This document shows, one piece after another, positions 23,447-48,606 of a stretch of DNA of 64,000 bases; positions within the stretch are counted from its first letter, which is position 1; the number at the start of each line of letters is the position of its first letter. Source of the stretch: an uncultured Acidobacteriota bacterium (GTDB lineage Bacteria; Acidobacteriota; Vicinamibacteria; Vicinamibacterales; CAVVIG01); NCBI GenBank assembly GCA_963780685.1, contig CAWACZ010000017.1, positions 320,563-384,562 of the forward strand, in the 5' to 3' direction. The notes beneath the pieces are model-generated. The model was not told where the DNA came from. It did no database searches and saw nothing but the letters and a program-made list of their open reading frames with translations. Position numbers and translations under genes: made by a program.

Positions 23447-23455
23447 GGGGTCTCC

Positions 23456-31714: not shown

Positions 31715-31896
31715 GCTGGTTGTTCCAATTGCAGGCGACCAACCGAACATAGCCGGCTCCGATGCTCCGGCCGTCGCTTATGCCACGGTGTATCCGATGC
31801 AGATGCTCCTGCGTGTTCTCTGCGCAGGTGCTGGCGCTGACCCTGATTCGATGAAGGGAATTTCGGCTAGAGCAAATCCCAGTTGGATGTAGCGGT

Positions 31897-32090
31897 CAGT
31901 CCTTTGTCCTTCGTCCTTGGTTTCTTGGTCCGTTCGTAGTTCATTGTCGTCCTCGGTCCTTGGCTGCGGGCGAAACTCGCATGGAGGGGCGACCGCACTT
32001 CGAGCACGACCAAGGACTTAGGACCAAGCGCGGCCCAAGATTGGGGACGGACCGAAGGACCAAGAACCCCGGACCAAGGACTGACACAAA
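31897..32090. repeat. long imperfect inverted repeat built from ~7-nt units (TCCTTNG / complement CNAAGGA)
   Basis: Left arm cagTCCTTTGTCCTTCGTCCTTGG...GTCCTCGGTCCTTGG. Right arm CCAAGGACTTAGGAC...GGACCGAAGGACCAAGAACCCCGGACCAAGGACTG. The terminal 8 bp (CAGTCCTT/AAGGACTG) are perfectly complementary. Lies between convergent ldh and the GH144-like gene. Confidence 0.7.
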
Positions 32091-32125
32091 GTCGATCGCG
32101 GACTACACCGAAAAGAAAAGCGCTC

Positions 32126-33445
32126 CTAGAGCCAACCGCCACTGAATCCCGCCCGGCGCAGTCCGGCAATGACTGCCGGGCACCGGCGCATGATGTTCCA
32201 GAGCAAGCCGGTCCGGTAGTTCTCGATCATCAGCACGACCGGCCCTTGATCGATGCCGAAGTGATACGGAGTGACCCACCAACCGGTCGGGCTATCCTGC
32301 ACCTCAAACGATTGGTTGAACGACGGCTTGAATCCATACTTTCTCGTCATTCCCAGGTCCATTCGCGCAAAGTACTGCACGGTCGGGATGACGATTTCAG
32401 GAGCAAACGGCAGCGAGGCGACGACGACCCACGGGGCGACAGTGCCGTCGTCGGGACCGTATGGGGCCCCTCGAGCGAAATAGTCGAAAAATTGGAGTTC
32501 GACGCCGTTGACCCAACGCTTCACCCACCCAGGCCCGTCGCATGCCGTGAATCCCCAACAGTGTTCGCCGTAGCCGACGAAATTCCCGGGATTGCGGATC
32601 GCGTATTCCTGCTGCAGGAACGTCGCCTGCCGGCTGTTCTCGAAGTAGTCGCTGCCGTGCGCACGCATGAATTCGTCGCGAATGCCGCGAAAGTCGATCC
32701 ACATATGCGAGAGTTGATGCGTGAAGAGCGGCCCCGAATAGAGCAATTCACGATCGTAGATTTTCTTCCACTCATAGGTCGAGCAATACGCGCGATAGCT
32801 CTCGGGCGGCAACGGATGCGTGGGCGAACCGAGTCCGAGGATGTACAGCAGCAACCCTTCGTCGTAACCTTGCCAGCGGTGTTGGATGAACCCGGTCTCC
32901 GGCCGCCAGCCATGCGTGAGAGTCGGCCCGCCGTCACAGGCCCAGTTCCAATCGGCCCGACGGTAAAGCGTATCGGCCAGGTCTCTGATCTCGACCTCGA
33001 CGCGCGTGTCACGGTCGAAATACGTGCCCGCCGTCAGGGCGCCCGCGAACAGAAACGCCGAGTCGATGGTGGAAAGCTCGCACTCCCACACGCGGCGACC
33101 GGTTTCGATGTCCAGGAAATGGTAGAAAAAGCCTTTGTAACCGGTAGCGTCCGGCTCGGGACCTTGCGGGCATGCGAGCAAGTACTGCAGGCGCCTCCGT
33201 GTGATCTTGGCGGCGAAGTCTCGGAAGAGGACGCCGCGCTCGACGACGACCGGAATCGTCGCCAGCGCCATACCCACGGCGGCGATACTGACCGGAGCGT
33301 TCGGGTCGGTCTTGTCCCGGACCAGCCCATTGTCAGGGTTGGTTTCGCGCAGGTAGTAAAGAATCGTGGACAACTGAAGCAGGCCCCGATCTCTGTCGGT
33401 AGGCGGTCGATCGAGATGGTCGTCAGCGCCGGGAATGTCGGCCAC
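32126..33445 (-). CDS. glucoamylase-like (PF10091/GH144-type) putative beta-1,2-glucanase, cytoplasmic
   Basis: VSIAAVGMALATIPV, GYKGFFYHFLDIETGRRVWECELSTIDSAFLFAGALTAGTYF and similar stretches recalled from the PF10091 family. No signal peptide. 16 nt downstream of the GH94 gene. Confidence 0.55.
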   Translation of the reverse strand: MADIPGADDHLDRPPTDRDRGLLQLSTILYYLRETNPDNGLVRDKTDPNAPVSIAAVGMALATIPVVVERGVLFRDFAAKITRRRLQYLLACPQGPEPDATGYKGFFYHFLDIETGRRVWECELSTIDSAFLFAGALTAGTYFDRDTRVEVEIRDLADTLYRRADWNWACDGGPTLTHGWRPETGFIQHRWQGYDEGLLLYILGLGSPTHPLPPESYRAYCSTYEWKKIYDRELLYSGPLFTHQLSHMWIDFRGIRDEFMRAHGSDYFENSRQATFLQQEYAIRNPGNFVGYGEHCWGFTACDGPGWVKRWVNGVELQFFDYFARGAPYGPDDGTVAPWVVVASLPFAPEIVIPTVQYFARMDLGMTRKYGFKPSFNQSFEVQDSPTGWWVTPYHFGIDQGPVVLMIENYRTGLLWNIMRRCPAVIAGLRRAGFSGGWL

Positions 33446-33461
33446 GAGTAGTTACTCTCGG

Positions 33462-36400
33462 TCAGCCCAACTGCACGCGGACCTTGTGGGTGTTCCCGTC
33501 GTCGCTGAGCGGCACTATGTGGTTCGGCACCAGCTGCCCGTCCAGCTCGATTGATCGCACGCCGCGACCCGTGCCAGCCGAGTTGTCTACCAGAATTTGG
33601 TATGTCGCCGACTGATAGCGATAGCTCAATTCGAATCGCGGCCAGTTCGGTGGGATGCATGGCTCGATCCGAAGAGTGCGGCCCCGCAATTGGAAGCCCA
33701 GAATCGTTTCAATCGCCACGCGGTAAAGCCAACTCGCCGAGCCGGTGTACCACGTCCAGCCGCCACGCCCCGTGTGCGGCGGGGCGCCATACACGTCGGC
33801 GCACACCACATACGGTTCAACTTTGTAGTGCTGCACCTCCTCAGCGGTCGTGGCATGGTAGACCGGGTTGATGAGGTTCCAAAGTTCCATGGCGCGGTCG
33901 CCGTGACCCTGCAACGCCATCGCCAGGGCAACCCAGGTGGCGGCGTGGGTGTATTGGCCGCCGTTCTCGCGGATGCCCGGCACGTACCCTTTGATGTAGC
34001 CCGGCTGAAGGGCGCCTTTGTCGAACGGCGGGTCGAACAGTTGGATCAATTTGTCGCCGGTACGCACCAGACGCTGTTGAACCGCGTCCATCGCCGACTG
34101 AGTCCGCGCCACGTTTCCTGCACCGGAAATGACCGCCCACGCTTGTGGGAGGGCGTCGATTTGGCACTCATCGTTTTGGGCCGATCCCAAGGGAGTGCCG
34201 TCGTCAAAATATGCCCGGCGGTACCACGCGCCATCCCAGGCGTTCGCCTCCAGAGCAACCCGCAACTGCTCGGCTCGCTCCCGGCACCACTTGGCATCGT
34301 CGGCTTGGCTGCACCGCTCAGCCAATTCTGCAAACGCATTCAACACGCTGATGAAGAACCACCCGTTCCAAACGCTCTCGCCCCTTCCGTGCGCGCCCAC
34401 CTTATTCATGCCGTCGTTCCAATCGCCCGTGCCCATGAGGGGCAATCCGTGAGAACCCAGCCGATAGCCGTGCTTCAGCGCGCGAACGCAGTGGGCATAG
34501 ACGGTGGCGGTCTGCTCACTTAGTGCGGGCAAGTTGAAGTCTTCCTCCTGATCATCGCGGAGTACCGGCGACGTGATGAACGGCACGACCTCATCCAACA
34601 GTTCGGTGTCGCCTGTTGTCACAACATAGTGGTGAACCACGAACGGCAGGAAATAGAGGTCGTCGGTGATCCGCGTCCGAACGCCGATCCCGGATGGCGG
34701 ATGCCACCAGTGCTGGACATCGCCCTCTTCGAATTGCCGTGCCGCCGCGCGCAAGATCTGCGCTCGCGCCTCTGCCGGAGCGCTGTAGACCAGGGCCATC
34801 ACATCCTGCAATTGGTCTCGAAAGCCGTACGCTCCGCCGGATTGGTAAAACGCAGAGCGGGCCCAAATGCGGCAAGCCAGGACCTGATAAACAAGCCAAC
34901 GGTTGAGCATCAGGTCGATGCCCGGGTCTGGCGTAGTCACGTGCAACGCGTTCAGGGAGCGGTCCCACTGCTGCTGCACCTGGGTCAGGGCCGCCTCCGC
35001 TCGATGGGACTGTGTGTAATCGCGAATGAGTCGATGAACCTCCGCCAGGCTATCCGCCTGGCCCAACGCGAAAACCACTTCTTTCGTCTCGCCAGGAGCC
35101 AGCGTCAGTTCCGTCGTCACCGCTGCGCAGGGATCGAGGGCTGGGCCCGCGGAGCCGGACAACCCTACGCGCTTCAGGGCGGCGGGCATTGAAATCGAGC
35201 CGTGCTCCCCGAGAAATTCCGTACGATCGGCGGTGACCGACTGCGCCGGCGAACCGGAGGCCACGAACGCGATCTTCCCGGCGAAGTCGCCGGCCCAGGC
35301 ATTCCGCGCCAATATCGCGGAGCTCTCCGGATCGCGCTCGCACACGACTTGCAGCGGAGCGTTTTCACGCACGGTTCCAAGAACCCATTCGGCGTAATAC
35401 GTCGCCGACAGCCGACGGGGCCGATCGCCGTCATTTCGCACCGTCAAGCACACCAACTTGATCGGATCGTCGGTCGGAACGAAAACCAAAAGCTCCTGAC
35501 TGAGATTCCGACTGGCCTGAGTGTAGCGAGTGTAACCTTGGCCGTGGCGGACCGTCACCGTTGCCCGAGGTCCCAGCGGTAAGGGCGTGGGAGTCCAGAA
35601 ATCACCAGTGTCCTCGTCGCGTAAGTAGATCACTTCGCCGGGTGGGTCCGACGTCGGATCATTCGACCAGGGACTGAGGCGATTCATTTGACTGTTGCCT
35701 GCCCAGCTGTAGCCAAGGCCGGCCTCCGTCACCAAACATCCGAACCGCGGATTGGCCAGCACATTCGTCCAGGGGGCCGGCGGCAACCTTGGCCCGGTCT
35801 GCAAAGTGCCGTCGATCACAATCACGTATTCGCGGCCATCACGGGTGAAACCTCCGAAGCCGTTCCAGAAGCTCAGTCCTTCAGGCGGCGGGACGGGCTG
35901 CGCGACAGCCTTTGTCGCGACTGCGCTCGGCGTGAGTGGTGGGGGAGTGGGCCGTGGGGCACCGCGATGATCGATTCGCTCTGCCAGCGACCCGCCACCA
36001 CCAGCGAAAACAGCCCGTGCGGCAGCGGCGAGGAGAACCGCATCATCGGTGGGCACCTTGTCCGCAGTCAAGAAGAACACACCTCCCGATTTGCCGAGCA
36101 ATTCGCCAGCAACTCCTGTCTCTAATTCCCCTCGTAACCGATCGGCAGGTTCGCCGGCGCGCTCGTCCAGAATCACGAGATCCAATTTCAATCCCCGGCC
36201 ACGGGTATAGGTGCACCAGCGAAGAAGTTGGCGGACGACGGCCTCATCGTCGGCCTGAGCCACTCGGACCAGCACAATTGGCAGGTCACCGGAAATAGCG
36301 TGCGGCCACAGGTTCGGCTGCCCCAGCCGGTTGGAGGCCACCGCATCAAGGTCGCGAAAACCGGAGTTCGTAAAAACGACGGACGCCGCCAATCGATTGA

Positions 36401-37322
36401 ACAGGGCGACGTCGTCCGCTGTAAGCTCGAGTTCCCTCAGTTCGCTCTGGGACCGGCTTTTGGCGCCGGCAAATGCCTGGTCGATCGCCTCGAAATCGCG
36501 GAATCGTTCGGCAATTCCGACGGCGGCTTCATGCGTGTCAGCCGCGCCGGTCACAAATGCGATCCGAGCCGTCTCTCCCGCTTCGAGGCCGACGCGCCGG
36601 CGCAAGCTGAAGATCGGATCGAGCACCGGGCCGGTAGTCCGCGACAGGCGAGCCCCCGAGTCCAGGGCGGCGGGATTGGCCGCCGTCCGGCCGCGTCCGA
36701 GAAATCTCATTCGGTCCGTCTCGTACTCAATCTCTTCAGTGGCCGACACACTCGCTGCTGACGTGTGAATCGCAAAGACTGGTTGCTCGTCCGCGCCGCG
36801 CGGTCGGCGTCGGGCCAAGAGGGCGCCATGTCGCGGTTCGAACTTTGTCTCCAGAAACAGCTTGGCGAAGGCGGGGTGGGCCTGATCCGCCCGCCGGCCA
36901 TTCAGACACACCTCCGCATAGCTCGTCAGCTCGAGTTCACGGTGACGACGGCCGTGATTGAGGAGCGTCACCGCGCGTACTTCAGCGTCGGCATCGGGCA
37001 CGACACAAACGTCACAGCGGGTCTCGACGTCGCCATCCCGTCGACGAAACTCGGCACGGTCGGCGTGAAAGTGGAATTCGGATTCATCAGCTGCCTTGGG
37101 CAGCGGCTGAAGGCCAATCGACCACATGCTGTTATCAGAGATGTCACGGACGTAACAGAACTGGCCCCAGCAGTCGCGCGTTGCGTCTTCGCGCCAGCGG
37201 GTGACATCCAGGTCGCGCCAAGTGCTGTAGCCAGCGCCGGCGCTCGTGAGCATCACGCCGTACGAGCCGTTGGACAGCAGCGCTATCGCAGGTCGCGATG
37301 TCATTGTTCCGTCCTTCGACAT
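33462..37322 (-). CDS. GH94-family glycan phosphorylase (cellobiose/beta-1,2-oligoglucan phosphorylase-like), 1286 aa
   Basis: NPRFGCLVTEAGLGYSWAGNSQMNRLSPWSNDPTSDPPGEVIYLRDEDTG, YQSGGAYGFRDQLQD and GTGDWNDGMN are GH94/NdvB-C-terminal-type motifs. Uninterrupted frame. Confidence 0.7.
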   Translation of the reverse strand: MSKDGTMTSRPAIALLSNGSYGVMLTSAGAGYSTWRDLDVTRWREDATRDCWGQFCYVRDISDNSMWSIGLQPLPKAADESEFHFHADRAEFRRRDGDVETRCDVCVVPDADAEVRAVTLLNHGRRHRELELTSYAEVCLNGRRADQAHPAFAKLFLETKFEPRHGALLARRRPRGADEQPVFAIHTSAASVSATEEIEYETDRMRFLGRGRTAANPAALDSGARLSRTTGPVLDPIFSLRRRVGLEAGETARIAFVTGAADTHEAAVGIAERFRDFEAIDQAFAGAKSRSQSELRELELTADDVALFNRLAASVVFTNSGFRDLDAVASNRLGQPNLWPHAISGDLPIVLVRVAQADDEAVVRQLLRWCTYTRGRGLKLDLVILDERAGEPADRLRGELETGVAGELLGKSGGVFFLTADKVPTDDAVLLAAAARAVFAGGGGSLAERIDHRGAPRPTPPPLTPSAVATKAVAQPVPPPEGLSFWNGFGGFTRDGREYVIVIDGTLQTGPRLPPAPWTNVLANPRFGCLVTEAGLGYSWAGNSQMNRLSPWSNDPTSDPPGEVIYLRDEDTGDFWTPTPLPLGPRATVTVRHGQGYTRYTQASRNLSQELLVFVPTDDPIKLVCLTVRNDGDRPRRLSATYYAEWVLGTVRENAPLQVVCERDPESSAILARNAWAGDFAGKIAFVASGSPAQSVTADRTEFLGEHGSISMPAALKRVGLSGSAGPALDPCAAVTTELTLAPGETKEVVFALGQADSLAEVHRLIRDYTQSHRAEAALTQVQQQWDRSLNALHVTTPDPGIDLMLNRWLVYQVLACRIWARSAFYQSGGAYGFRDQLQDVMALVYSAPAEARAQILRAAARQFEEGDVQHWWHPPSGIGVRTRITDDLYFLPFVVHHYVVTTGDTELLDEVVPFITSPVLRDDQEEDFNLPALSEQTATVYAHCVRALKHGYRLGSHGLPLMGTGDWNDGMNKVGAHGRGESVWNGWFFISVLNAFAELAERCSQADDAKWCRERAEQLRVALEANAWDGAWYRRAYFDDGTPLGSAQNDECQIDALPQAWAVISGAGNVARTQSAMDAVQQRLVRTGDKLIQLFDPPFDKGALQPGYIKGYVPGIRENGGQYTHAATWVALAMALQGHGDRAMELWNLINPVYHATTAEEVQHYKVEPYVVCADVYGAPPHTGRGGWTWYTGSASWLYRVAIETILGFQLRGRTLRIEPCIPPNWPRFELSYRYQSATYQILVDNSAGTGRGVRSIELDGQLVPNHIVPLSDDGNTHKVRVQLG

Positions 37323-37386
37323 TGGAATCAGGTTGAAGCTCGGTCCATGTCCGAGCGCATATCGTCAGCAGCCGCCCGTCATCGAC

Positions 37387-40300
37387 TCATGAGCTCAGCG
37401 CCGCCCCGACGGCCGCCCGCAGTCTATCCAGCCCAGCCGCAACGTCTGGCCCAAGATGCACCCGTAAGGCTCGGCGGTCGCGCTCGTACAGGACCTGAAG
37501 ATCACCTCGCGCCTGGGCCGCCTTGACGACGCCGAAGGTGTACTTCTGACCCGGCACGGGTAAATCGACCGTGTCACCGCAAGTGATCTGCAGGAACACG
37601 CCCGTGTTTGGCCCACCCTTGTAGGCCTGTCCTGTCGAGTGCAAGAAGCGCGGCCCGAATTCCAGGCACGTCGCGATGCGCTTGGCGTCGCGAACGCCAT
37701 GGCGTATTGCCTGCAACGCCTGTTCGTGCGCCTCGCTCATCTCGATGTACGCCAGCAGCGCGAAGTAGTCGCCTTCCCGGAGCCGATCCAGATGCGCCTT
37801 GAGATACCCGTCAAGCGTGCGGGTCCCGTTCGCCATCTTCGCCAAGACCGCGGAGTTCTTCTCATCGGTGAAGAGCTGTATCCCATCCTCCGTGACGATC
37901 GGCGTCTCTTCCGGTAACGCCCCGCGTTCCTCGGTACTCCGCGGTCAACTTTCGCGTCGCGATCTTGCTGGCTTCCACGTCCGGCTGATCGAACGGGTGA
38001 ATGCCGAGTATGGAGCCCGCCACTGCGGTGGCGAACTCCCAGCGGAAGAATTCCTCGCCCAGGTCGTACGGATCGTCCACTGTTATGCGCACCACCGGGT
38101 GACCAGCGCGTTCCAGCTCGTTCACGGATGCGTCCTGCGCCGCGTCCGGTGCCGACAGCAATCTCAGATAGACAAACAAGCGGTCGCGACCGTAGACACC
38201 AGGCCGGCCGAGCGCCTCGCGATCGATCGGAATCACGCCCTTGCCTTCCTTCCCGGTGGATTCTGCAACCAGCTGCTCCAACCAGGCGCCAAGATCGTAA
38301 ATCGCCGGCGAAGCCACGATCGTCATCTTGTCGCGCCCAAACTGGCTCGCGGCAACGCCGAGAATGGTGCCGAGCACGACGCCGGGGTTTTCTTCGACGG
38401 GAACGGATGGCATGCAGGCACACACCATCTCCTCGGTCCGATCCAGGAACTTCGCCACATCCACTCCCATGATGGCCGCCGGGACCAGGCCGAAATCGGA
38501 GAGCACCGAGTAGCGCCCTCCGATGTTCGGCCAGCCGAGGAAGACGTGTCGAAAGCCATCGCCTTCGGCAACCTGCTGCATCTTGGAGCCCGGATCGGTG
38601 ATGGCAAGGAACCGACGGCCGGTTTCCTTCTTGCCAACGAGCCGTTCGATGCGGTCGAAGAAATACTGCTTGAACACGTTGGGCTCGAGCGTCGAGCCCG
38701 ACTTGCTCGAGACGATGACGAGCGTGTTTTTCAGATCGACTTTGTCCTCGAAGGCCTTCACCTGGGCTGGATCGGTCGAATCGAGCACGTGAAGTTCCGG
38801 GAATCCGCCGATCGTGCCGAAGGTCGTCTTGATCACCTCAGGACCCAGGCTCGATCCCCCCATGCCCAGCAGGAGGACATGGGAGAAGCCGGCATTCCGA
38901 GCCGCTTCTGTGATACCGGTCAGGCGCTGAATGTGCGCCAGCTGGTCATTGGTAATACCGAGCCAGCCGAGCCACTCCGCCTCATCCTTACCGCTCCAGA
39001 GCGATGCATCCCGGCCCCAGAGCTTTCTGACCTTGCCCTGCGCGCGCCACTCGGCCAATGACGCTTTCACCGCAGCGGTCAATTCCTCGGGCAGCTTATA
39101 GGTCAGGCGATTGAGTCTTCCCGCCCCCGCCTGCTGGCTCTGCTTTTCAACGGCCTTCAACAGCTTCGCGAAAGCATCAGCAAAGAGCTGCACGCCTTCG
39201 GTGAGCAGCTTGCCGGTCACCTCCTTCATCGAGATTCCGACTTCCGCGAGCGTCGCCATCGTGTCGCAGGCCGACTCCACATCCTCTCCGAGGCTCGCGC
39301 GCACCCGGCCGTGAGCGCGGAACGCGTCGAATGTTGCGGGCGGTATCGTGTTGACGGTATCTGGGCCGACGAGCTCTTCGATGTAGACAACGTCGCGATA
39401 GTTGGGATTCTTGCTGCCAGTGCTGGCCCACAGAAGCCGCTGCGTCTGCGCGCCTTGGCCGGCCAACGACTGCCAGCGCGAGCCGGCGAAGAGCTCCTGG
39501 TAGCGCTGATAGGTCAGCTTGGCGTTGGCGATCGCGACTCGGCCGGTCAACGATCGCAGAAGGCTTTGCTCTTTTGCGGTCGTCGTGGCCTGCAGCCGTG
39601 CTGTCATGAGCGCGTCGATCGCGGTGTCAATGCGACTGATAAAGAAGCTCGCCACGCTGGCCACGCGGCTCGGGTCTCCGCCGCCTGCGACAAAACGCTC
39701 CAGTCCTGAGATGTACGCTTCGGCCACTTGCTCGTATGCGTCGTGCGAAAACAGCAGCGTGACATTGACATTGAGGCCTTCGCTGATGAGCTGCTGAATA
39801 GCGGGAATGCCCTTGCGATGTCGCGGGGACCTTGATCATCAGATTCTCGCGTCTCCACGGCCCGCCACAGGCGCCTCGCTTCGTCCAGCGTGCCTGGCGT
39901 GTCGAACGCAAGGAATGGCGAAACCTCCAGGCTGACGTATCCATCACGCTTCGACGTCTGCTCGTACACGGGGCGTAGCGTATCAGCGGCGTCTTGAATA
40001 TCACGGACGGCGAGTCTCTCGTACAGGGTCTTGGCGTCCAACGTCCGGGACTCAGGCGCCTCGAGAACATCCTTGTAGTCGGAGCTGCCGGCGACAGCCT
40101 TTTCGAAGATCGCCGGATTGGAGGTCACGCCGCGCAAGCCGTCTTCATCGATCAGGCGGCGCAGCTCACCGCTTGTAATCAGGCTGCGGCGTATGTAGTC
40201 GAACCAGACCGACTGGCCGAAGACCTGCAGCGCGCGAAGTGGATTCTCCAGTGCCGTCACCTTGGCGAGCCGGCGCAGATGGCGTGCCTCACCGGTGAAA

Positions 40301-40680
40301 CGGGCGTTGAGGAACGCGCGAATCAGCTCGTGCGCAAGTTCAATGCCGACGACGCGGCCCCCCAGCACGAGCACGTTCATGTCGTCATGCTCCACGCCCT
40401 GGTGCGCCGAGTAGGTGTCGTGGCACAAGCCCGCGCGAATTCCGGGGATTCTATTGGCAGCCATCGACGCGCCGACGCCGCTGCCGCAGAGAATGATGCC
40501 GCGCTCGGCTCGGTGTCCCCGCAGGGCCGCGCCGACGGCCTCGGCGTAGTCCGAATAGTCCACGGGATCCTTGCTGGAGGTGCCCACATCGACCACCTCG
40601 CGGTTCTCCGCAACCAGGAACGCTTTCACCGCTTCTTTCAGTTCGAACCCGGCATGATCCGAGCCGATCGCGACGCGCAT
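37387..40680 (-). CDS. RpiB - transaldolase - glucose-6-phosphate isomerase fusion, interrupted by three single-base insertions as assembled
   Basis: RpiB ([15 protein letters not shown]...[13 protein letters not shown]) runs with no stop into transaldolase ([20 protein letters not shown]...[10 protein letters not shown]). Frame changes near 39852 and 39809 ([13 protein letters not shown] / [21 protein letters not shown]). PGI domain ([23 protein letters not shown]). Frame change near 37933, after which the frame returns to the starting one. Confidence 0.75.
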
Positions 40681-40683
40681 GGT

Positions 40684-42795
40684 TCACCTCGTTTGAGCGA
40701 CCTGCTGCTTGGCGGCGGCGACGACGTTCTCGAGAGTGAAGCCGAACTTCTTCCGCAATTCCTGCAACGGTGCCGAGGCCCCGAAGGTCTCCATCCCGAT
40801 ACTGTGGCCACCACTGCCGGTGTACCGCGCCCAGCCGAGCGTGGACGCTTTTTCCACAGAGACGCGCGGCCGGACCGATTCCGGCAGCACCTGCTCGCGA
40901 TAGTCAGGAAACGAGCGACAGTGCTGCTCGAAAAGCTCCCACGACGGCATGCTCACCACGCGCGCCTTGATCCCGTCGGTCTTGAGCCGCTCGTGCGCCG
41001 CCAGACAGAGCGAGACTTCACTACCGGTCGCAAGCAGAATCACATCGGGCGGGCCAGGATCGACATCCGCGAGCACGTACGCGCCGCGTTGGAGGCCCTC
41101 CGCGGCGGCGTATTTCGTGCGGTCGATCGTCGGCACCGCTTGCCGCGTCAGGATCAGCGCCACCGGCTCATGACGAAGTCGCATGATCACGCGCCAGGCT
41201 TCAGCCACCTCATTGGCATCGGCGGGGCGAAGCGTGATTAACCCCGGGATCGCGCGCAGGGACGCCAGATGCTCGACCGGTTGGTGCGTCGGTCCGTCTT
41301 CCCCGACTCCAATCGAATCGTGGGTGAAGATATGGATGACCGGGATCTCCATCAGTGCGCTCAGCCGGATCGCGGCACGGCCGTAGTCGCTGAAGATCAG
41401 GAACCCCGATCCATATGGTCGGAGCTTCGACAGCGACAAGCCATTGAGAATCGCGGCCATGGCGTGCTCACGGATGCCGAAATGGAGATTCCGCCCGCCA
41501 GGATTCTCGGCGCTGAAATCGCCGGCGCTGCGGGTCAGCCGCGTCTTGCACGACGGACCGAGATCTGCCGAACCCCCAATCAGCCACGGCACGTTGCCGC
41601 CGACCACATTGAGCGCCTGGCCCGACGCGTCCCGCGTGGCAACCCCTTTGGCATCACCGGGAAACACCGGCCATCCTTTGTCCCAGTCGTCCGGCAGTTC
41701 GCGGCGCAGCATGCGGTACCCCTGGTCGGCGAGCTCCGGATACGTGCGCCGGTACTCTTCAAACCTGGCCCACCAGGCGCGATGCAACGCCATGCCGCGC
41801 GCGCCGATACCCGCCCGGAAATGCTCGCGCACGCCGTCGGGGACGAGAAACTGCGCGTCTTCCGGCCAGCCGTAATGACGCTTGGTTAACCTGATTTCCT
41901 CCCTGCCGAGCGGTTCTCCGTGCGCCGCGCTCGTATCCTGTTTGGTCGGCGCGCCGTAAGCAATGTGGCTGTCGACGATCATCAAGGTCGGTCGATCGGT
42001 CGTGCGCTTGAACGTCTCGAAGCCACGCTCGAGCATCTCCAAATCGTTGGCATCTCCCACACGTGTCACGTTCCAACCGTATCCGATGAATCGGGTGGCG
42101 ACGTCGTCGCTGTACGCGAGCGCCGTGTTTCCTTCGATGGTGATGTGGTTGTTGTCGTAGATCCAGCACAGGTTGGCAAGCTTGAGATGGCCGGCCAACG
42201 AGGCGGCCTCGCCGGAGATCCCTTCCATCATGCAGCCGTCGCCGCACAAGGCATAGACGTCGTACTCGAACAGGTCGAACCCCGGGCGATTGAAGTAGCT
42301 CGCCAGCCAGCGCTCGGCGATCGCCATCCCGACGCTCGTCGCCAAGCCCTGTCCCAAGGGGCCGGTCGTCGTTTCGACGCCCGATGTCCAACGGTATTCG
42401 GGATGGCCAGCGCATTTGCTGCCCAGCTGCCGAAACCGCTGGATGTCCTCCAGCGTCACCGATAGTTGTCCAAGTGTTTCGTACTTGGGGTTGACCGCTT
42501 TGACCCCCGTCAAATGCAGCACGGAGTAGAGGAGCATCGAGGCATGGCCGGCCGACAACACGAAGCGGTCGCGGTTGGGCCAGATCGGATGGTCGGGGTC
42601 GAAGCGCAGGACGCGCTGCCAGAGACAATAGACCACCGGTGCCAGGGCCATCGGCGTTCCCGGGTGGCCTGAGTTCGCCTCCTGCACGGCATCCATCGCC
42701 AGCGTGCGGATGGTATTGACCGACAGCTGGTCCATGGTTTTCATCGCGTCGATGTCCGGCCTCGCTGAAGACATCGTGGTATCAGTCGTGCTCAT
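40684..42795 (-). CDS. tkt: transketolase
   Basis: Start set at the Met at 42795 (GGAG SD). ANSGHPGTPMALAPV, GDGCMMEGIS and FTHDSIGVGEDGPTHQP motifs. 3 nt upstream of the rpiB fusion gene. Confidence 0.9.
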   Translation of the reverse strand: MSTTDTTMSSARPDIDAMKTMDQLSVNTIRTLAMDAVQEANSGHPGTPMALAPVVYCLWQRVLRFDPDHPIWPNRDRFVLSAGHASMLLYSVLHLTGVKAVNPKYETLGQLSVTLEDIQRFRQLGSKCAGHPEYRWTSGVETTTGPLGQGLATSVGMAIAERWLASYFNRPGFDLFEYDVYALCGDGCMMEGISGEAASLAGHLKLANLCWIYDNNHITIEGNTALAYSDDVATRFIGYGWNVTRVGDANDLEMLERGFETFKRTTDRPTLMIVDSHIAYGAPTKQDTSAAHGEPLGREEIRLTKRHYGWPEDAQFLVPDGVREHFRAGIGARGMALHRAWWARFEEYRRTYPELADQGYRMLRRELPDDWDKGWPVFPGDAKGVATRDASGQALNVVGGNVPWLIGGSADLGPSCKTRLTRSAGDFSAENPGGRNLHFGIREHAMAAILNGLSLSKLRPYGSGFLIFSDYGRAAIRLSALMEIPVIHIFTHDSIGVGEDGPTHQPVEHLASLRAIPGLITLRPADANEVAEAWRVIMRLRHEPVALILTRQAVPTIDRTKYAAAEGLQRGAYVLADVDPGPPDVILLATGSEVSLCLAAHERLKTDGIKARVVSMPSWELFEQHCRSFPDYREQVLPESVRPRVSVEKASTLGWARYTGSGGHSIGMETFGASAPLQELRKKFGFTLENVVAAAKQQVAQTR

Positions 42796-42838
42796 TGGTC
42801 TTGCTCCGATGTATTCCAGAGATCCCGAGAAACGCACA

Positions 42839-45217
42839 TCAGTACGGCCAGGTCCAGTTGGCAATCTCCGCCCGGTCGGCGCCGTGCTCGTGTGCATAAC
42901 GGATGTTGTCGACGATGGCGTTCTGCATTTCCTCCTTCAAATGCCCGGCTTTGACGCGGAGCTTCGGCACGCGATCGATCACGTCGAGGACCAGATGGAA
43001 ACGCGACGTTTCGTTCAGCATCGCCAGCTCGAGCGGCGTGTTGATGTTGCCCTTCTCCTTGTAACCGTGCACGTGCATGTGGTCGTGGCCCTTGAACCGA
43101 TAGGCAAGCTTGTGGATCAGCCAGGGATAGCCGTGGAAGTTGAAGATAATCGGCTTGTCTGTCGTGAACAATCCGTCGAATTCACGCTCGGTGCAGCCGT
43201 GCGGATGCTCGGACGCCGGCTGCAGCTTGAACAGATCCACCACGTTGACGAAGCGCAGCTTCAGATCCGGCACACGCTCGCGCAGGATGGCGGCCGCGGC
43301 CAACGCTTCCATGGTGACGACATCGCCGCAGGACGCCAGCACCACGTCCGGCTCGTCGCCTGCGTCGGTGCTCGCTCTGGACCAGATACCAACGCCCTTG
43401 GTGCAGTGAACAATCGCCTCGTCGATGGTGGTGAACTGGAGATGTTTCTGTTTGTCAGCCACGATCACGTTGATGTAGTCGGTGCTCCGCAGACAGTGAT
43501 CCATGACGGACAGGAGCGTGTTGGCGTCGGGCGGAAGATACACACGTGTCACCGACGAGCTCTTGTTGGTCACGAGATCGATGAAGCCGGGATCCTGATG
43601 AGAGAACCCGTTGTGGTCCTGGCGCCAGACCGTCGACGACAGCAGGATGTTCTCGGAAGCGACCGGCACGCGCCACTTCACGTGGTTCTTCGAGATGTCC
43701 AACCACTTGGCGTGCTGGTTGAACATGGAATCGATGACGTGGGCAAAGGCTTCATACGTGTGAAAGAACCCGTGGCGGCCCGTGAGCAGATACCCCTCCA
43801 GCCAACCGACCAGCGTGTGCTCGGAAAGCATCTCCATGACGCGCCCATCAGGGGATAGCTCGCCGCCGTCGCCATCCTCCGGCAGCATGTCGGCCATCCA
43901 GGTCTTCTTGCTGACTTCGTAGACAGCCTGCAGCCGGTTGGAGGCGGTCTCGTCTGGCCCGAAGACGCGGAAGTTGGTCGGGTTGTTCTTCATCACATCG
44001 CGCAGGAACTCGCCGAGCGGCTTGGTGTTCTCGTGCAACGTCGTGCCACGGGAAACAACTTCCACTGCGTATTTGCGAAAGTCGGGAAGCTTGAGTTCCT
44101 TGCGAAGCAGACCGCCGTTGGCATGCGGGTTCGCGCTCATCCGAAGGCGCCCCTTTGGCGCAAGGGCCTTGAGCTCTGGCAGGAGCGTGCCGCCTGCATC
44201 GAACAATTCTTCAGGCTTGTAGCTGCGCATCCAGTCTTCCAGAAGTTTCAAGTTCGCCGGATTGTCGCGCACATCGGCGAAGGGAACCTGATGCGATCGC
44301 CAGGAGCCTTCGAGCTTGCGTCCTTTCATCTCCTTCGGCCCGGTCCACCCCTTGGGCGAACGCAGCACGATGACCGGCCACCGCGGCCGGACGGGAGTGT
44401 TGGACTCCCGCGCTCTTTTCTGCACAGCACGAATCTCGCCGATGGCCTGTTCCAACGTGGCGGCCATTTTCTGGTGCATCGGGGCCGGGTCGCTGCCTTC
44501 CACGAAATAGGGCTTGTAGCCGTAGCCGACAAACAGCGCTTCCAGTTCTTCGTGGCTGATGCGTGCAAGGATGGTCGGGTTGGCGATCTTGTAGCCGTTG
44601 AGATTCAGGATCGGCAGCACCGCGCCGTCCCGTACGGGGTTGATGAACTTGTTGGAATGCCACGCGGTCGCGAGCGGCCCGGTCTCCGCCTCGCCGTCAC
44701 CCACCACGCAGGCGACGATGAGATCCGGATTGTCGAGCACCATGCCGTACGCGTGCGAGAGACTGTAGCCAAGCTCGCCGCCCTCGTGGATGGAGCCTGG
44801 CGTTTCAGGCGTGACGTGGCTGCCGATATGACCCGGGAAGGAGAACTGCTTGAAGAACTTCTGCATCCCTTCGGCATCCTCGCTCTTGTCCGGATAGATC
44901 TCAGAGTAGGTGCCTTCGAGGTACGCCGGCCCCAGCACTCCGGGCGCGCCGTGGCCGGGCCCGGCCACGAAAATCATGTCGAGGCCGTCCTTGACGATCA
45001 TCCGGTTCAGATGCACCCACACAAAGGACAGGGCCGGGCTCGCGCCCCAATGACCAAGCAGCCGGCGCTTCACATGGTCCGTTTTCAAGGGCTCCTTGAG
45101 CAGCGGGTTGTCCTTCAGATAAATCATCCCCACCGCGAGGTAGTTGCATGCCCGCCAGTACGCGTTCAACAACTCCAGATCTTTCGAGGAGAGCGGTGTT
45201 GCCTCGGTGTGCGTCAT
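42839..45217 (-). CDS. xfp: xylulose-5-phosphate/fructose-6-phosphate phosphoketolase
   Basis: Start set at the Met at 45217. [39 protein letters not shown] and [18 protein letters not shown] are phosphoketolase hallmarks. About 792 aa. Confidence 0.9.
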
Positions 45218-45369
45218 TTCCGGCTCTTTGGTCGCTACTGGCTTTGCCACGGCATTTCTCCAGTCAAAACCTGGTTGTTCTTCTGCGGCCTCGCGGCGCC
45301 GCATACCCTCGTGGTGACTTCAACGCTCCTGTTCGGCTTGCCGTCAATGACAGTGGGGCAGTCAGTCCC

Positions 45370-45957
45370 TCATTCCGGCACCTTGACCACGGCGTTCCAG
45401 CGTTTCACGGCCGGGATATCGCCGTAGTAGCCGAGAACGCTCACGGTTGCGGTATCGAGAAGGAAGTGACACCCGGCCGAAACCGGAAGGCCAATCCACC
45501 GAGCCACAAAGACCCTGAAGATGTGGCCGTGCGCGAAAAGAGCGACGGGCCCTTCCACCGAGCGAACTCTTGCAATGGCCCGATCGACGCGGACGCCAAT
45601 CTGCTCTGGACTTTCCCCTCCGGGACAACCGTCGTTGAACAGCATCCATCCTGGCGCATTCGCCTGGATCTGTCTCGAGGTCAAGCCTTCGTATTCGCCA
45701 TAGTTCCATTCCATCAGGTCACAATCGTTTTCAGCACGCCCGCCGAGCCCAGCCAGCTCGCAGGTCTGCCGGGCCCTGGAGAGCGGACTCGTCAGCACCC
45801 CCGCGAAGGTCAGCTTGCCCATGATCGGTGCCAGGCGCTTGGCGACGCGCCGGCCGTTTTCCGTCAGCGGGATGTCGGTGACGCCGGTGTGCTGCCCGCT
45901 CAGGCTCCATTCCGTTTCGCCATGCCGGATGAGAAAGACTCGTTGGTTTCGCGTCAT
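45370..45957 (-). CDS. histidine-phosphatase-superfamily protein (phosphoglycerate-mutase-like sugar phosphatase)
   Basis: [29 protein letters not shown] catalytic motif. ATG overlaps the pgm stop (ATGA at 45954-45957). Confidence 0.75.
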
Positions 45958-47606
45958 CCCATGACCCCTGCCAACACGCTGCTGACGAGCGCTTGCGCTT
46001 CCTCCTGGATGCGCCGCAGGTGATCACTACCGCGAAAGCTCTCCGCGTAAAGCTTGTAGACGTCCTCGGTGCCGGACGGACGTGCCGCGAACCACCCCTG
46101 CGCGGTCACGACCTTCAGGCCGCCAATGCTCGCGCCGTTGCCTGGGGCCGTCGTGACGAGCGTTTCAATCCGATCTCCGGCGAGCGTCGACGCCTTGACA
46201 TCTCCCGGCGAGAGGTTTTGAAGAACCGCCTTCTCTTCCGCTGTGGCTGGCGCATCAATGCGTTGATACACCGGAGCCCCAAGCTGACGGCTCAGGTCGC
46301 CGTACAGCTCGGAAGGAGCGCGACCTGTCCGTGCGGCGATCTCCGCTGCCAGAAGGTCCATGACGATCCCGTCCTTGTCGGTCGTCCATACCGCGCCGTC
46401 CTGCCGGAGGAACGACGCCCCCGCGCTCTCTTCGCCACCAAAGCCCAGCGATCCCTCGAGCAGGCCGGGCACGAACCACTTGAATCCGACCGGCACTTCG
46501 ACGAGCGCTCGGCCCAGCTTCGCTGCGACGCGGTCGATGATGCTGCTGCTCACGACGGTCTTGCCGATCGCTGTGTCGGCGCGCCAGTCACGACGATCGG
46601 TGAAGAGATAGAAAATCGCGGCGGTGAGGTAATGATTAGGATTCATCAGGCCGGCGTCGGGCGTGACGATGCCGTGCCGATCGCTGTCGGGGTCGTTGCC
46701 GAAGGCGATGTCGAACTGATCCTTGAGCCCGATCAGCGTCGCCATGGCGAAGGGAGATGAACAGTCCATGCGGATCTTGCCGTCCCAGTCCAAGGACATG
46801 AAGCGGAACGTCTGGTCCACCCGATTGTTCACTACCTCCATGTCAATACCGTAACGTTCGACGATCCTCGGCCAGTACGCCACGCTCGCCCCACCAAGCG
46901 GATCGACTCCGATCTTGAGGCCGGCGCTTCTGATGACTTCCATGTCCACCACCGAACCGAGATCGTTCACGTACGTGCCGACAAAGTCATACGGATGGGT
47001 GGTGGCGGCACGACGGGCCCTCTCGTAAGCGAGTCGGCCCACGTTCCGGAGATCGGTCGACAGCAGCTGGTTCGCTCTCGCCTCGATCCAACGAGTCACC
47101 TCCGTATCGGCGGGGCCGCCGCTCGGCGGGTTGTATTTGAAGCCGCCATCGTCAGGCGGATTGTGTGACGGTGTGATGACGATACCGTCTGCAAGACCGG
47201 AAGCCCGTCCGCGGTTATGTGTCAGGATCGCGTGGGAGATGGCAGGCGTGGGTGTATAGCCTTCGTCTCCGTCGATCATGACCTCCACACCGTTTGCCGC
47301 GAGCACCTCCAGGGCCGACATGAGGGCCGGCCCCGAGAGCGCGTGCGTGTCCTTGCCGATGTAGAGAGGCCCGCTGATGCCCTGGCCGCTTCGGTAGTCG
47401 CAAATCGCCTGGGTGATCGCCAGGACATGCGCTTCGTTGAAGGTGCCGCGCAGCGACGAGCCACGGTGACCGCTGGTGCCGAAGCTGACCCGTTCTGCGA
47501 GATTCGTGATCTCGGGCTTGCGCGCGTAGTACTCGTCTCGGAGCTCGTCGACATCGACGAGAGCGTCCTTCGAAGCGGGTTGACCGGCCAGGGGATGGAT
47601 CGCCAT
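45954..47606 (-). CDS. pgm: phosphoglucomutase (alpha-D-glucose-phosphate specific)
   Basis: [10 protein letters not shown] active-site loop, [29 protein letters not shown] and [10 protein letters not shown]. Confidence 0.9.
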
Positions 47607-47768: not shown

Positions 47769-48542
47769 TCAGTAGCGCTCGCGCACGAATCGCCGGCGCG
47801 CGATTGATGCGTCATCGTTGTACGCGCCTTTGGACGACCGCTTGGGAAGCTTGACCTTCTTATGGGTCAGCTTCTTGTACGGGATCTGCTCGAGCAAATG
47901 GGCGATCGTGTTCAGTCGTGCGGCCCGCTTGTCGTCCGAACGGACGATGTACCAGGGGGCGATGCGCGTATCGGTCCTCTTGAGCATGATGTCGCGCGCA
48001 TGGGAATAGTCGTACCAGCGTGTTCGCGAGGGCAAGTCCATCGGGCTCAATTTCCACTGGCGCAGCGGGTCTTGGATGCGTGCCTCGAAACGGCGCTTCT
48101 GCTCGTCATTGCTCACTTCCATCCAGAGTTTGACCAGGATGGTGCCGCCCTCGACCAGGTACTTCTCGATCTGAGGGCACAGCTCCAGGAATCGCTGATG
48201 CTGTTTCGGCGTGCAGAACCCCATCACATACTCGACGCCGGCGCGGTTGTACCAGCTCCGATCGAAGATCACCACTTCGCCCGCGGCCGGGAAATGCCCC
48301 ATGTAGCGTTGAAAGTACACCTGACTCTTCTCGCGGTCCGAAGGCGCCGGCAAAGCCACGACCCTGAACACGCGCGGGCTCAGACGCTCCGTGATCGCCC
48401 GAATCGTGCCCCCCTTGCCCGCCCCGTCACGACCCTCGAGCACGACCACGACGCGGAGCCCCTTCTCCTTGACCCATGTCTGAAGATGGCACAGCTGCAC
48501 CTGGAGGTTTCTCAGCGTCTTTTCGTACTTCGCTCGTTTCAT
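47769..48542 (-). CDS. ppk2: polyphosphate kinase 2 family protein
   Basis: VVVLEGRDGAGKGGTIRAITERLSPRVFRVVALPAPSDREK and FDRSWYNRAGVE motifs. Confidence 0.85.
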   Translation of the reverse strand: MKRAKYEKTLRNLQVQLCHLQTWVKEKGLRVVVVLEGRDGAGKGGTIRAITERLSPRVFRVVALPAPSDREKSQVYFQRYMGHFPAAGEVVIFDRSWYNRAGVEYVMGFCTPKQHQRFLELCPQIEKYLVEGGTILVKLWMEVSNDEQKRRFEARIQDPLRQWKLSPMDLPSRTRWYDYSHARDIMLKRTDTRIAPWYIVRSDDKRAARLNTIAHLLEQIPYKKLTHKKVKLPKRSSKGAYNDDASIARRRFVRERY

Positions 48543-48606
48543 CGGTTGCCCGTCCTTCGGATAGCGGGTTGAGCATCGCCCGCCGTTGAACTTTGGCTCG
48601 GTTCGC

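Follow-up and report, generated by a model that had tools for sequence, protein, structure and literature searches.

A free-standing Cgs-type GH94 phosphorylase and a GH144 glucanase homolog encoded in one gene string with phosphoketolase-pathway enzymes in an uncultured Acidobacteriota bacterium

Do the genes for β-glucan phosphorolysis and the phosphoketolase genes that lie side by side in this Acidobacteriota bacterium belong to one pathway? The question is raised by seven minus-strand genes in the window, by which we mean the whole 64-kb stretch of DNA analyzed here, and a first-pass annotation had read them as linking β-glucan phosphorolysis to a phosphoketolase (bifid-shunt-like) pathway. 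We find all seven where that annotation had placed them, with very strong family assignments by Pfam and NCBIfam, and list them with two flanking features.

31870..32125, minus strand: long imperfect hairpin of CTTGGTCC/GGACCAAG repeats directly 3' of the GH144 gene (MFE −108.3 kcal/mol, z −3.6)
32126..33445, minus strand: GH144 endo-β-1,2-glucanase homolog, 439 aa (PF10091, E 1.5e-82, 277 bits)
33462..37322, minus strand: free-standing Cgs-type GH94 glucan phosphorylase, 1286 aa (PF06165 in two stretches, PF17167)
37387..40680, minus strand: rpiB-tal-pgi triple-fusion gene with three +1 single-base insertions (corrected product 1096 aa)
40684..42795, minus strand: transketolase gene tkt, 703 aa (Pfam; TIGR00232, 786 bits, cut-off 682; ThDP motif GDGCMMEG)
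42839..45217, minus strand: xylulose-5-P/fructose-6-P phosphoketolase gene xfp, 792 aa (XFP_N, XFP, XFP_C; NF003617)
45370..45957, minus strand: histidine phosphatase gene (hisP), Rv3214/Shb17 subgroup, 195 aa (PF00300, His_Phos_1, E 5e-46)
45954..47606, minus strand: α-phosphoglucomutase gene pgm, 550 aa (four PGM_PMM domains; active-site motif TPSHNP)
47769..48542, minus strand: PPK2 polyphosphate kinase gene ppk2 (PF03976; TIGR03707, 352 bits)

The genes of the string are co-directional, with spacers of −4 to 152 nt (a 4-nt overlap of pgm with the phosphatase gene, then gaps of 152, 43, 3, 64 and 16 nt, exactly as first described) and a large hairpin after the last gene, and they probably form a single operon, or else a small number of transcription units, and would be cotranscribed. 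The hairpin, which holds four of the six copies of CTTGGTCC in the window and faces a convergent L-ldh gene, probably marks where the transcription unit ends on its 3' side. Scans for promoters, terminators and sigma-54 sites reveal nothing above chance. At the other end, ppk2 shares the strand of pgm, lies 162 nt upstream of it and is a probable extension of the string; it is also found near the cluster in four relatives (L001, L078, L106 and L108). The pgm product scores 930 bits against TIGR01132 (cut-off 778), and the xfp product, for which 45304 is an alternative start, scores 1498 bits against NF003617 (cut-off 1143), with all three XFP domains at full length and the ThDP-binding motifs EGGELGY and GDGEAETG.

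The GH94 and PF10091 assignments both stand up to an HMM search, with scores above the Pfam gathering thresholds. The phosphorylase consists of two supersandwich stretches (PF06165, 541 bits) and a catalytic domain (PF17167, 421 bits), with E-values of 1e-163 and 1e-126, and translation from an alternative Met at 37304 would give 1280 aa; Pfam finds nothing but GH94 domains in the 1286-aa ORF, with no GT84/GT2 domain, membrane helices or fused cyclase domain. We find that residues 13–1253 align with residues 1541–2792 of Cgs/NdvB in one unbroken alignment of 1032 bits, across the Rossmann-fold-like (RFL) insert that occupies positions 1847–2012 of Cgs, between GP1 and GP2 (PMC10901819). The homology is continuous throughout, in keeping with the Cgs-type GP1-RFL-GP2-GP3 architecture, whereas β-1,4 phosphorylases score about 313 bits, one third of the Cgs value. 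Both Asp residues changed by mutation to inactivate the GP domain of Cgs, D2393 and D2528 (PMC10901819), have equivalents here: D836, kept with the phosphate-binding R835 in GFRDQLQD, and the general acid D970 in GDWNDGMN, which also aligns with D492 of ChBP. Relatives at 48–50% identity are full-length Cgs proteins; the true Cgs relatives L163 and L158 (2891–3035 aa) have PF10091-like and GH94 domains, with a weak GT2 in L163 only. H1126, in QYTHA, aligns with the phosphate-binding His of ChBP, which we take to be His666. NCBIfam holds no model for the clade, and to our knowledge neither a member of it nor any free-standing Cgs-type GH94 enzyme has been characterized.

For the neighboring glucanase, the best solved relative is XcSGL (8XUL), a characterized β-1,2-glucanase (369 bits), and the SGL clan's defining residues, E239, F286 and Y367 in XcSGL numbering (PMC12102758), are kept as E196, F241 and Y322; the GH189 cyclase gives no hit at E<0.001. 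Both glycoside enzymes had been described as lacking signal peptides, and indeed neither has room for one, the GH144 start being preceded by only two codons within its stop-to-stop frame. All characterized GH144 members that we know of act only on β-1,2-glucans. The β-1,2 specificity, first proposed from family membership only, now also rests on the match of the glucanase to XcSGL with its clan residues, and homology to the Cgs GP domain together with a near-constant pairing with GH144 points to 1,2-β-oligoglucan phosphorylase (EC 2.4.1.333) as the predicted activity of the GH94 protein.

A comparison of 87 related GH94 loci shows a GH144 gene directly downstream of GH94 in 59, most of the others being cut by a contig end, and in 17 an xfp gene no more than 10 kb from GH94; for a single-copy gene at a random position in a few-Mb genome, we estimate ~0.4% per locus by chance. 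The association of xfp with GH94 is far beyond chance. Genes for Xfp, histidine phosphatase, Pgm, Tal, Pgi, Tkt, AckA or a class I aldolase stand beside the GH94-GH144 pair in about ten gene orders, across many lineages. The locus L083, 95.2% identical to the window over 13.1 kb, reads pgm-hisP-fbaI-xfp-tkt-fusion-GH94-GH144, where fbaI encodes a class I FBA (NF033379) and the fusion gene is intact; L003 repeats the run from xfp to GH144, with hisP and fbaI upstream on the opposite strand of a contig that begins before any pgm. Elsewhere other gene orders occur, some with unfused genes, as GH94-GH144-pgm-tal-xfp-pgi-ldh (L166 and L085, an arrangement seen in a 6.1-Mb genome), xfp-hisP-GH94-GH144 (L114, L132 and L165), xfp-ackA-hisP divergent from GH94-GH144 (L089), fbaI-hisP-GH94 (L128 and L130), or tkt-rpiB-pgi-tal divergent from GH94-GH144-pgm (L152).

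Where 10 kb is available on both sides, 8 of 11 loci carry pathway genes beside the glycoside hydrolase pair; the remaining three have no adjacent GH144 gene, and two of them encode full-length Cgs proteins. The pair and the phosphoketolase genes are separable modules, since each occurs alone: the pair has no pathway genes nearby in L084 and is joined to a complete oxidative pentose-phosphate operon, without xfp, in L167, while L001 and L004 have a pgm-xfp-tkt-fusion block without the pair. Other neighbors of the pair are an ABC_membrane_2/BacA-like transporter gene (11 loci), a GH1 β-glucosidase gene (three) and glycogen phosphorylase genes (three). The phosphoketolase link is more than adjacency, and its recurrence in about ten architectures strengthens the core claim of the first-pass annotation.

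The reading that we prefer, at a probability of about 0.7, is that the string is a catabolic cluster channeling β-1,2-glucan into a phosphoketolase pathway of the bifid-shunt type, the frameshifts of the fusion gene being assembly errors. In the cytoplasm, GH144 would cut β-1,2-glucan chains or rings to give non-reducing ends, and the GH94 phosphorylase would remove glucose units with inorganic phosphate as α-glucose-1-phosphate, no ATP being spent. Pgm and the Pgi domain would convert this product to fructose-6-P; Xfp, with phosphate, would split fructose-6-P and xylulose-5-P into acetyl-phosphate and erythrose-4-P or glyceraldehyde-3-P, with Tkt and the Tal and RpiB domains recycling the sugar phosphates. 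Acetyl-phosphate would then be used by AckA or Pta, the triose branch would be handled by Pyk with L-Ldh or PflB, and the Rv3214/Shb17-like phosphatase would most likely hydrolyze sedoheptulose-1,7-P2 or fructose-1,6-P2. All bifid-shunt enzymes but Rpe are encoded within the 64-kb window (Xfp, Tal, Tkt, Rpi, AckA and lower glycolysis/Ldh); AckA, Pta, L-Ldh (TIGR01771), Pyk and PflB, which like PPK2 had been noted nearby, are confirmed within 20 kb of the string, PflB by its N-terminus. The reported absence of rpe and fba from the window agrees with tblastn, which finds no rpe and no class I fba homolog, the aldolase search covering class I. No transporter or β-glucosidase gene is present in the window, which counts against this reading, in which the glucan has to reach a cytoplasmic glucanase.

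The phosphatase bears on a different account of the same genes. It has the catalytic core of branch 1 (RHGETEWS at residue 11, EWNYGEYEG at 83 and AHGH at 142), its top solved relatives are Rv3214 (PDB 2A6P, 143 bits) and then yeast Shb17 (109 bits), and its gene adjoins xfp or GH94 in nine other loci and a class I aldolase gene in four relatives (L083, L003, L128 and L130). The earlier guess that it supplies a bisphosphatase step gains some support from Shb17 and these aldolases, and we consider it a candidate sedoheptulose/fructose bisphosphatase that most likely hydrolyzes a sugar bisphosphate. If it acted as a sedoheptulose-1,7-/fructose-1,6-bisphosphatase and, with a class I aldolase, recycled erythrose-4-P and trioses, the cluster would be a natural non-oxidative glycolysis giving up to three acetyl-phosphates per glucosyl unit, not the acetate/lactate mix of the bifid shunt. 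We hold this to be doubtful. The phosphatase does group with Shb17, a yeast SBPase, with common motifs, but it falls under the NCBIfam cut-off (167 vs 226 bits), and Rv3214, the best solved relative, carries no annotation beyond acid phosphatase. In the 95%-identical L083 a class I FBA gene separates hisP from xfp, whereas the window has none, and hisP often adjoins GH94 rather than an aldolase, so that the phosphatase may instead act on a substrate connected with glucose-1-P or the glucan. Xfp, Tkt, Tal and RpiB are all encoded in one string, and engineered cycles combine Xfp, FBA and SBPase, Shb17 being among the enzymes tried (PMC10468489); L-Ldh, Pyk and PflB by the clusters nevertheless suggest that trioses are drained, not recycled. 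That xfp, the Shb17-like phosphatase, class I aldolase, tkt, tal-rpi and the glucan phosphorylase together make up a natural carbon-conserving non-oxidative glycolysis, a route known to us so far solely as an engineered pathway, is in our estimate unlikely. If true, each glucose unit of β-1,2-glucan would, with phosphate alone, yield up to three acetyl-phosphates, and a sedoheptulose bisphosphatase of the histidine phosphatase type would be the irreversible driver of the cycle.

The rpiB-tal-pgi gene was assigned to the correct families in the first-pass annotation, but its three frameshifts were overlooked. We find that 37387–40680 is not one ORF but is spread over two frames as three ORFs, with a further stretch of ~40 nt in the third frame, and that single-base insertions at ~39854, ~39814 and ~37934 set the gene apart from five intact relatives. 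Deleting the three bases restores a 1096-aa protein that matches intact homologs of 1095–1096 aa at up to 91% identity and scores 1466 bits against NF007080 (bifunctional transaldolase/phosphoglucose isomerase; cut-off 712) and 157.5 bits against TIGR01120 (rpiB; cut-off 138.65). A true pseudogene in this strain would mean that the pathway is broken or depends on tal, pgi and rpi genes located elsewhere, and the distribution of the lesions lends this some weight: three frame-disrupting insertions lie in one 3.3-kb gene, whereas the remaining ~12 kb of the string is free of them, and the first two, ~39854 and ~39814, isolate the active-site lysine motif of Tal, NLMIKVPAT. Apart from those three bases, however, the gene has neither stop codons nor larger lesions and matches an intact copy at 95% identity, and the same kind of +1 insertion, in a non-homopolymer context, breaks the essential atpD and atpG, with ackA and ldh likewise split in the window, all of which points to a technical error process. 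The frameshifts are thus most likely assembly errors rather than the mark of a pseudogene. Because the seven or eight frameshifts seen are mildly clustered, with three in this 3.3-kb gene, we leave the pseudogene some room, but judge it improbable.

Somewhat less probable again is that the pair manages an internal, cytoplasmic store of β-1,2-glucan, which a reversible GH94 enzyme would build at low phosphate and mobilize at high phosphate, with GH144 making ends. Such phosphorylases are reversible and make β-1,2-glucan in vitro (PMC11842490). Neither enzyme has room for a signal peptide, the string in the window holds no transporter gene, and several neighbors belong to reserve or central metabolism (ppk2 in the window and four relatives, glycogen phosphorylase at three loci, pgm, and the complete pentose-phosphate operon beside the pair in L167); the transporter gene beside the pair in 11 loci and the GH1 β-glucosidase gene in three, on the other hand, fit an imported oligosaccharide. 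We know of no report of a cytoplasmic β-1,2-glucan store, and cellular phosphate levels favor phosphorolysis, both of which count against a reserve. Very improbable, finally, is an ordinary cellodextrin-type route in which GH94 acts on cellobiose, cellodextrin or laminaribiose, or in which the adjacency of xfp is functionally meaningless: homologs are named 'cellobiose phosphorylase' in JGI and the clade is without a characterized enzyme or NCBIfam model, but the threefold higher score against the Cgs phosphorylase, the retained Cgs-type architecture, the almost constant pairing with GH144 and the recurrence of xfp in about ten arrangements all stand against it.

The preferred reading, glucan catabolism through phosphoketolase, places the locus among several known systems. 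The GH94 protein resembles Cgs over its whole length, including the RFL insert and the equivalents of both mutated Asp residues, but is stand-alone and soluble, without the GT84 glycosyltransferase, membrane helices and cyclase domain; and whereas the GP domain of Cgs trims the chain during synthesis, the context of pgm, pgi and xfp implies a catabolic role here. In this predicted activity it would resemble the SOGPs, cytoplasmic GH94 enzymes that convert β-1,2-glucooligosaccharides to glucose-1-P as an ATP-saving entry (PMC11842490), yet characterized SOGPs are undetectable by sequence search from the window protein, and they lack the RFL insert that it carries (PMC10901819). The glucanase shares the PF10091 (α/α)6 fold and the E/F/Y residues with the GH144 SGLs XcSGL (8XUL), CpSGL (5GZH) and BDI_3064 (5Z06); XcSGL has a predicted signal peptide (PMC12102758), for which the window enzyme has no room; in this it resembles PgSGL1 and PgSGL2, which belong to other SGL-clan groups and carry no signal. 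With engineered NOG and SCTPK (PMC10468489), which combine phosphoketolase, aldolase and sedoheptulose/fructose bisphosphatase, the locus has in common a Shb17-type phosphatase gene beside xfp and, in its relatives, a class I aldolase gene beside xfp, but the window itself is without the aldolase gene and has genes for lactate and formate branches.

We found no description in the literature of β-1,2-glucan phosphorolysis paired with phosphoketolase genes. The SOGP cluster of Listeria comprises an ABC transporter and a GH3 β-glucosidase and is not known to be linked to phosphoketolase. The bifid shunt of Bifidobacterium uses Xfp, Tal, Tkt, Rpi, Rpe, AckA and Ldh, and the window follows the same enzyme set and logic, with Xfp, Tal, Tkt and RpiB in the string; it differs in that these genes are physically linked to pgm and to a gene pair for glucan phosphorylase and glucanase, that RpiB, Tal and Pgi are fused in one protein, that rpe is missing from the window, and that the host is a soil bacterium, most likely one related to Vicinamibacterales. 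The GH94-GH144 and phosphoketolase string is a new combination of known parts, every enzyme family in it being known, and it would join the phosphorolysis of a rare polymer to an ATP-saving phosphoketolase fermentation route, in a pairing of genes that recurs in many relatives.

We find that the seven-gene string read by the first-pass annotation on the minus strand at 32126-47606 stands when gene calls are made from an ORF listing and translations and families are assigned with Pfam and NCBIfam, and that the spacers first reported (-4, 152, 43, 3, 64 and 16 nt) are reproduced with the starts below.

Genes of the string and its upstream neighbours
45954-47606, minus strand, pgm (TIGR01132, 930 bits)
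45370-45957, minus strand, histidine phosphatase (hisP), branch-1
42839-45217, minus strand, xfp (NF003617, 1498 bits)
40684-42795, minus strand, tkt (TIGR00232, 786 bits)
37387-40680, minus strand, rpiB-tal-pgi fusion
33462-37322, minus strand, GH94 protein of 1286 aa
32126-33445, minus strand, PF10091/GH144 protein
47769-48542, minus strand, PPK2 (TIGR03707), 162 nt upstream of pgm
49102-51054, co-directional, PAS-GAF sigma-54 activator (PAS-GAF-AAA-HTH), just upstream of ppk2

The genes for Pyk, L-Ldh, Pta and AckA and the start of PflB lie in the window as described, and rpe is absent from it, a tblastn search with an rpe query giving no match. Elsewhere in the window, an MtrB/PioB-type outer-membrane porin (23848-26070) with multihaem cytochrome genes on either side (22079-23455, 26156-27211) looks like an extracellular electron-transfer module.

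The linkage of the GH94-GH144 pair to phosphoketolase genes was examined by mapping the cluster genes onto loci surrounding the fusion protein (80, from genomes) and GH94 (80, from metagenomes), and onto several long contigs. GH144 directly follows GH94 in 59 of 87 loci, the exceptions being mostly contig ends, and xfp and GH94 lie no more than 10 kb apart in 17 of the 87, a count made on many short contigs. Pathway genes are present in 8 of the 11 loci whose flanks reach the full 10 kb; the remaining three have no adjoining GH144 gene, and two of these encode full-length cyclic glucan synthases (Cgs). The arrangements differ from locus to locus.

Gene orders around the GH pair in related loci (fbaI, class I fructose-bisphosphate aldolase)
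L083: pgm-hisP-fbaI-xfp-tkt-fusion-GH94-GH144
L003: xfp-to-GH144 run as in L083, with hisP and fbaI upstream on the opposite strand
L166 (a 6.1-Mb genome) and L085: GH94-GH144-pgm-tal-xfp-pgi-ldh, genes unfused
L114, L132 and L165: xfp-hisP-GH94-GH144
L129, L131 and L147: ABC transporter, CBS-BON, xfp, GH94, GH144
L089: xfp-ackA-hisP, divergent from GH94-GH144
L128 and L130: fbaI-hisP-GH94, with xfp divergent
L152: tkt-rpiB-pgi-tal, divergent from GH94-GH144-pgm
L134: GH94-GH144-xfp

Such repeated, rearranged co-localisation is a classical signature of functional coupling, and supports the initial reading of a route from glucan phosphorolysis to phosphoketolase. Two counter-examples, L084 with GH94-GH144 alone and L167 with the pair added on to a pgi-rpe-gnd-zwf-pgl-rpiB-tkt-pgm operon that has no xfp, mark the pair as a separate attachable module, one that joins sugar-phosphate operons generally and phosphoketolase operons most often. 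A BacA/ABCD-type ABC transporter (PF06472), a candidate glucan importer, lies beside xfp-GH94-GH144 in 11 other loci (L129, L131, L147/148/150, L160 and others) and a CBS-BON protein in 8 loci of other lineages; glycogen phosphorylase (3 loci), GH1 beta-glucosidase (3) and ackA (7) also recur, and all five are absent from the gene string of the window, the transporter from the window altogether. The closest relatives, L001 and L004, have the order pgm-xfp-(tkt)-fusion; the latter, a Vicinamibacterales MAG, is syntenic with the window at 75-82% nucleotide identity, including the adjoining sigma-54 activator and the atp operon. From this synteny and from an AtpA with 89% identity to its counterpart in an Acidobacteriota MAG, the organism probably belongs to Acidobacteriota, although the MAG labels of close loci conflict, L003 being labelled Alphaproteobacteria. 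MlaE/MlaF/MlaD genes and a DUF2950/DUF3300 pair occupy 1-2642 and 19622-21965 of the window; MlaE and DUF2950 also surround the pgm-xfp-fusion block of L001, hence a wider synteny between the two contigs.

The GH94 and PF10091 assignments hold in the Pfam profile search. The GH94 protein aligns to Cgs with 1032 bits (residues 13-1253 to 1541-2792), unbroken across the region of a Rossmann-fold-like insert, and to chitobiose and cellobiose phosphorylases with ~300 bits over its C-terminal 800 residues only. This insert was defined between GP1 and GP2 in the Cgs structure and is absent in SOGP, the characterised 1,2-beta-oligoglucan phosphorylase (PMC10901819); the GH94 protein gives no sequence match to SOGP structures even at E = 10. 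Catalytic residues are kept, namely the acid D970 in GDWND (D492 of chitobiose phosphorylase, D2528 of Cgs), the Arg/Asp pair in GFRDQLQD, whose Asp is equivalent to D2393 of Cgs, and the phosphate-binding His in QYTHA. The PF10091 protein matches the biochemically characterised GH144 beta-1,2-glucanase XcSGL (8XUL) with 369 bits; its assignment as a Cgs-like cyclase of GH189 was rejected because every solved relative at E<0.001 belongs to GH144. The predicted beta-1,2 specificity of both enzymes has good support from homology. In both alignments, 13-23 residues at most separate the first codon from the start of the catalytic region, and neither protein has a hydrophobic N-terminal segment, which agrees with the earlier call of no signal peptide, and they are therefore predicted to be cytoplasmic.

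Among solved structures the histidine phosphatase is closest to M. tuberculosis Rv3214 (143 bits), followed by yeast Shb17/YKR043C (109 bits), with shared motifs along the whole core; Rv3214 carries the deposition title of a possible phosphoglycerate mutase but is described as an acid phosphatase. Shb17 is a specific sedoheptulose-1,7-bisphosphatase (SBPase) according to PMC10468489. In the window hisP and pgm overlap by 4 nt; in nine other loci hisP adjoins xfp or GH94, and it has a class I aldolase gene (NF033379) next to it in L083, L003, L128 and L130. An aldolase and a putative SBPase or fructose-1,6-bisphosphatase (FBPase) beside Xfp, Tkt, Tal and Rpi make up the enzyme set of two engineered pathways, non-oxidative glycolysis and the SCTPK cycle (PMC10468489), so the string could encode a natural carbon-conserving cycle of this kind; we consider this unlikely, as the SBPase/FBPase role of the phosphatase is putative, a class I fba query finds no match in the window by tblastn, and the nearby Ldh, Pyk and Pfl genes match the ordinary outcome of a bifid shunt. 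The aldolase gene of L083 sits between phosphatase and xfp (L083 128-1889 versus window 45218-45957). Of the pgm-phosphatase region, where L083 contains just the last 131 nt of pgm, only the phosphatase segment was aligned, and its low DNA identity (~76%) suggests a recombination breakpoint; the xfp-tkt spacer differs by a 111-nt indel.

For the phosphorolysis and phosphoketolase route, we propose that beta-1,2-glucan or its oligosaccharides would enter the cytoplasm, that GH144 would make internal cuts and GH94 would release glucose-1-P by phosphorolysis from the non-reducing end, that Pgm and Pgi would convert glucose-1-P to fructose-6-P, and that Xfp, Tal, Tkt and RpiB, together with an Rpe encoded elsewhere, would yield acetyl-P and glyceraldehyde-3-P. 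The AckA step would then give ATP, and the triose would end as lactate or as formate and acetyl-CoA; by the textbook stoichiometry of phosphoketolase fermentation, this route would give ~3.5 ATP per glucosyl unit. That the glucan is instead an internal reserve is conceivable, with glgP, ppk2 and pgm as recurrent neighbours, but little supported.

The families first read in rpiB-tal-pgi (37387-40680) are correct, but the gene is not one ORF, its frameshifts having been overlooked: the first frame encodes RpiB and the first third of Tal, ~40 nt of the second frame encode the Tal lysine motif NLMIKVPAT, and the third frame encodes the remaining Tal and most of Pgi, whose C-terminus is back in the first. 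DNA alignment with five relatives places three single-base insertions, at ~39854, ~39814 and ~37934, in the window only, all other indels among the relatives being multiples of three. With these bases taken out, the gene encodes a protein of 1096 aa that has thousands of homologues, the best 120 of which all carry the three domains (1094-1112 aa, 78-91% identity). L083 has an intact copy of the gene; over the 13.1 kb that it shares with the window at 95.2% identity, the three insertions are the only frame-disrupting differences within genes. Relative to the L004 orthologues, atpD (~57567) and atpG (~56630) each carry one inserted base of the same kind as in the fusion gene, in non-homopolymer context, and ackA (~62600) and the L-ldh C-terminus (~31640) are each split across two frames, a sign of error-prone assembly throughout the window. 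Since genes essential for ATP synthase are affected likewise, all these frameshifts are very probably assembly or polishing errors; a real pseudogene is less likely, for although rpiB-tal-pgi holds three events out of the seven or eight detected, identical +1 insertions occur in atpD and atpG. Homologues of the fusion (P0001-P0120; L003-L082) are widespread under Acidobacteriota, Chloroflexota, Gemmatimonadota, Planctomycetota and other labels. Tkt-(rpiB)-tal-pgi pairing is likewise widespread among the collected loci. The fusion is abundant in databases, named only 'bifunctional transaldolase/phosphoglucose isomerase', and our literature search found no paper describing it; although so annotated, its three domains show a protein predicted to be trifunctional.

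Beyond the string's end, the 256-nt intergenic region 31870-32125 between convergent L-ldh and GH144 forms a long imperfect hairpin of ~200 nt (-108 kcal/mol, z -3.6) facing the L-lactate dehydrogenase gene; it is composed of CTTGGTCC/GGACCAAG repeats, with four of the six window copies, and could be a terminator or REP-like element. A scan of 31500-49200 gave 1 promoter-like and 14 terminator-like sites, mostly intragenic and not above shuffles, and a sigma-54 consensus search gave 14 matches against 27 expected. One -24/-12-like site, TGGAACGACTGGTGCA at 48952-48937 on the minus strand, ahead of a small unannotated ORF (48607-48921), is plausible but indistinguishable from chance. The activator at 49102-51054 is one of three sigma-54-dependent activators in the 64 kb (with 5715-6821 and 11004-12662), and in L004 it is again syntenic with the cluster.

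Beta-1,2-glucans are regarded as rare signalling or osmoprotective polymers of rhizobia, Agrobacterium and Brucella, and to our knowledge only a handful of systems for their degradation are known. The cluster and some ten sister architectures in soil metagenomes suggest a cytoplasmic, phosphate-driven beta-1,2-glucan route in many uncultured soil bacteria, wired straight into ATP-thrifty phosphoketolase fermentation. They also offer targets for enzymology (a free-standing Cgs-type GH94, a signal-less GH144 and an Rv3214/Shb17-like phosphatase in conserved genomic context) and, for metabolic engineering, a possible natural template for non-oxidative glycolysis. In the literature searched we found neither a pairing of free-standing Cgs-type GH94 with signal-less GH144 nor recurrent physical linkage between such a pair and phosphoketolase, pgm and a phosphatase of the Rv3214/Shb17 type, and nothing relevant on phosphoketolase together with GH94 or with Acidobacteriota; work on GH94 with GH144 consists of enzymology papers that mention no phosphoketolase link. 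All enzyme families in the cluster are already known, and its type is that of a cluster for polysaccharide phosphorolysis linked with an established central pathway. The metagenomic GH94 relatives in L163 (4742-13846) and L158 (5174-13846), which share 48-50% identity with the protein, are of the full-length Cgs type and have PF10091-like and GH94 domains, the former with an additional weak GT2 match. Their cyclase domain matches PF10091, the Pfam family of GH144, so that the free-standing pair resembles the last two modules, at the C-terminus, of Cgs: these lie in one protein there and in the window are separate genes in the opposite order.
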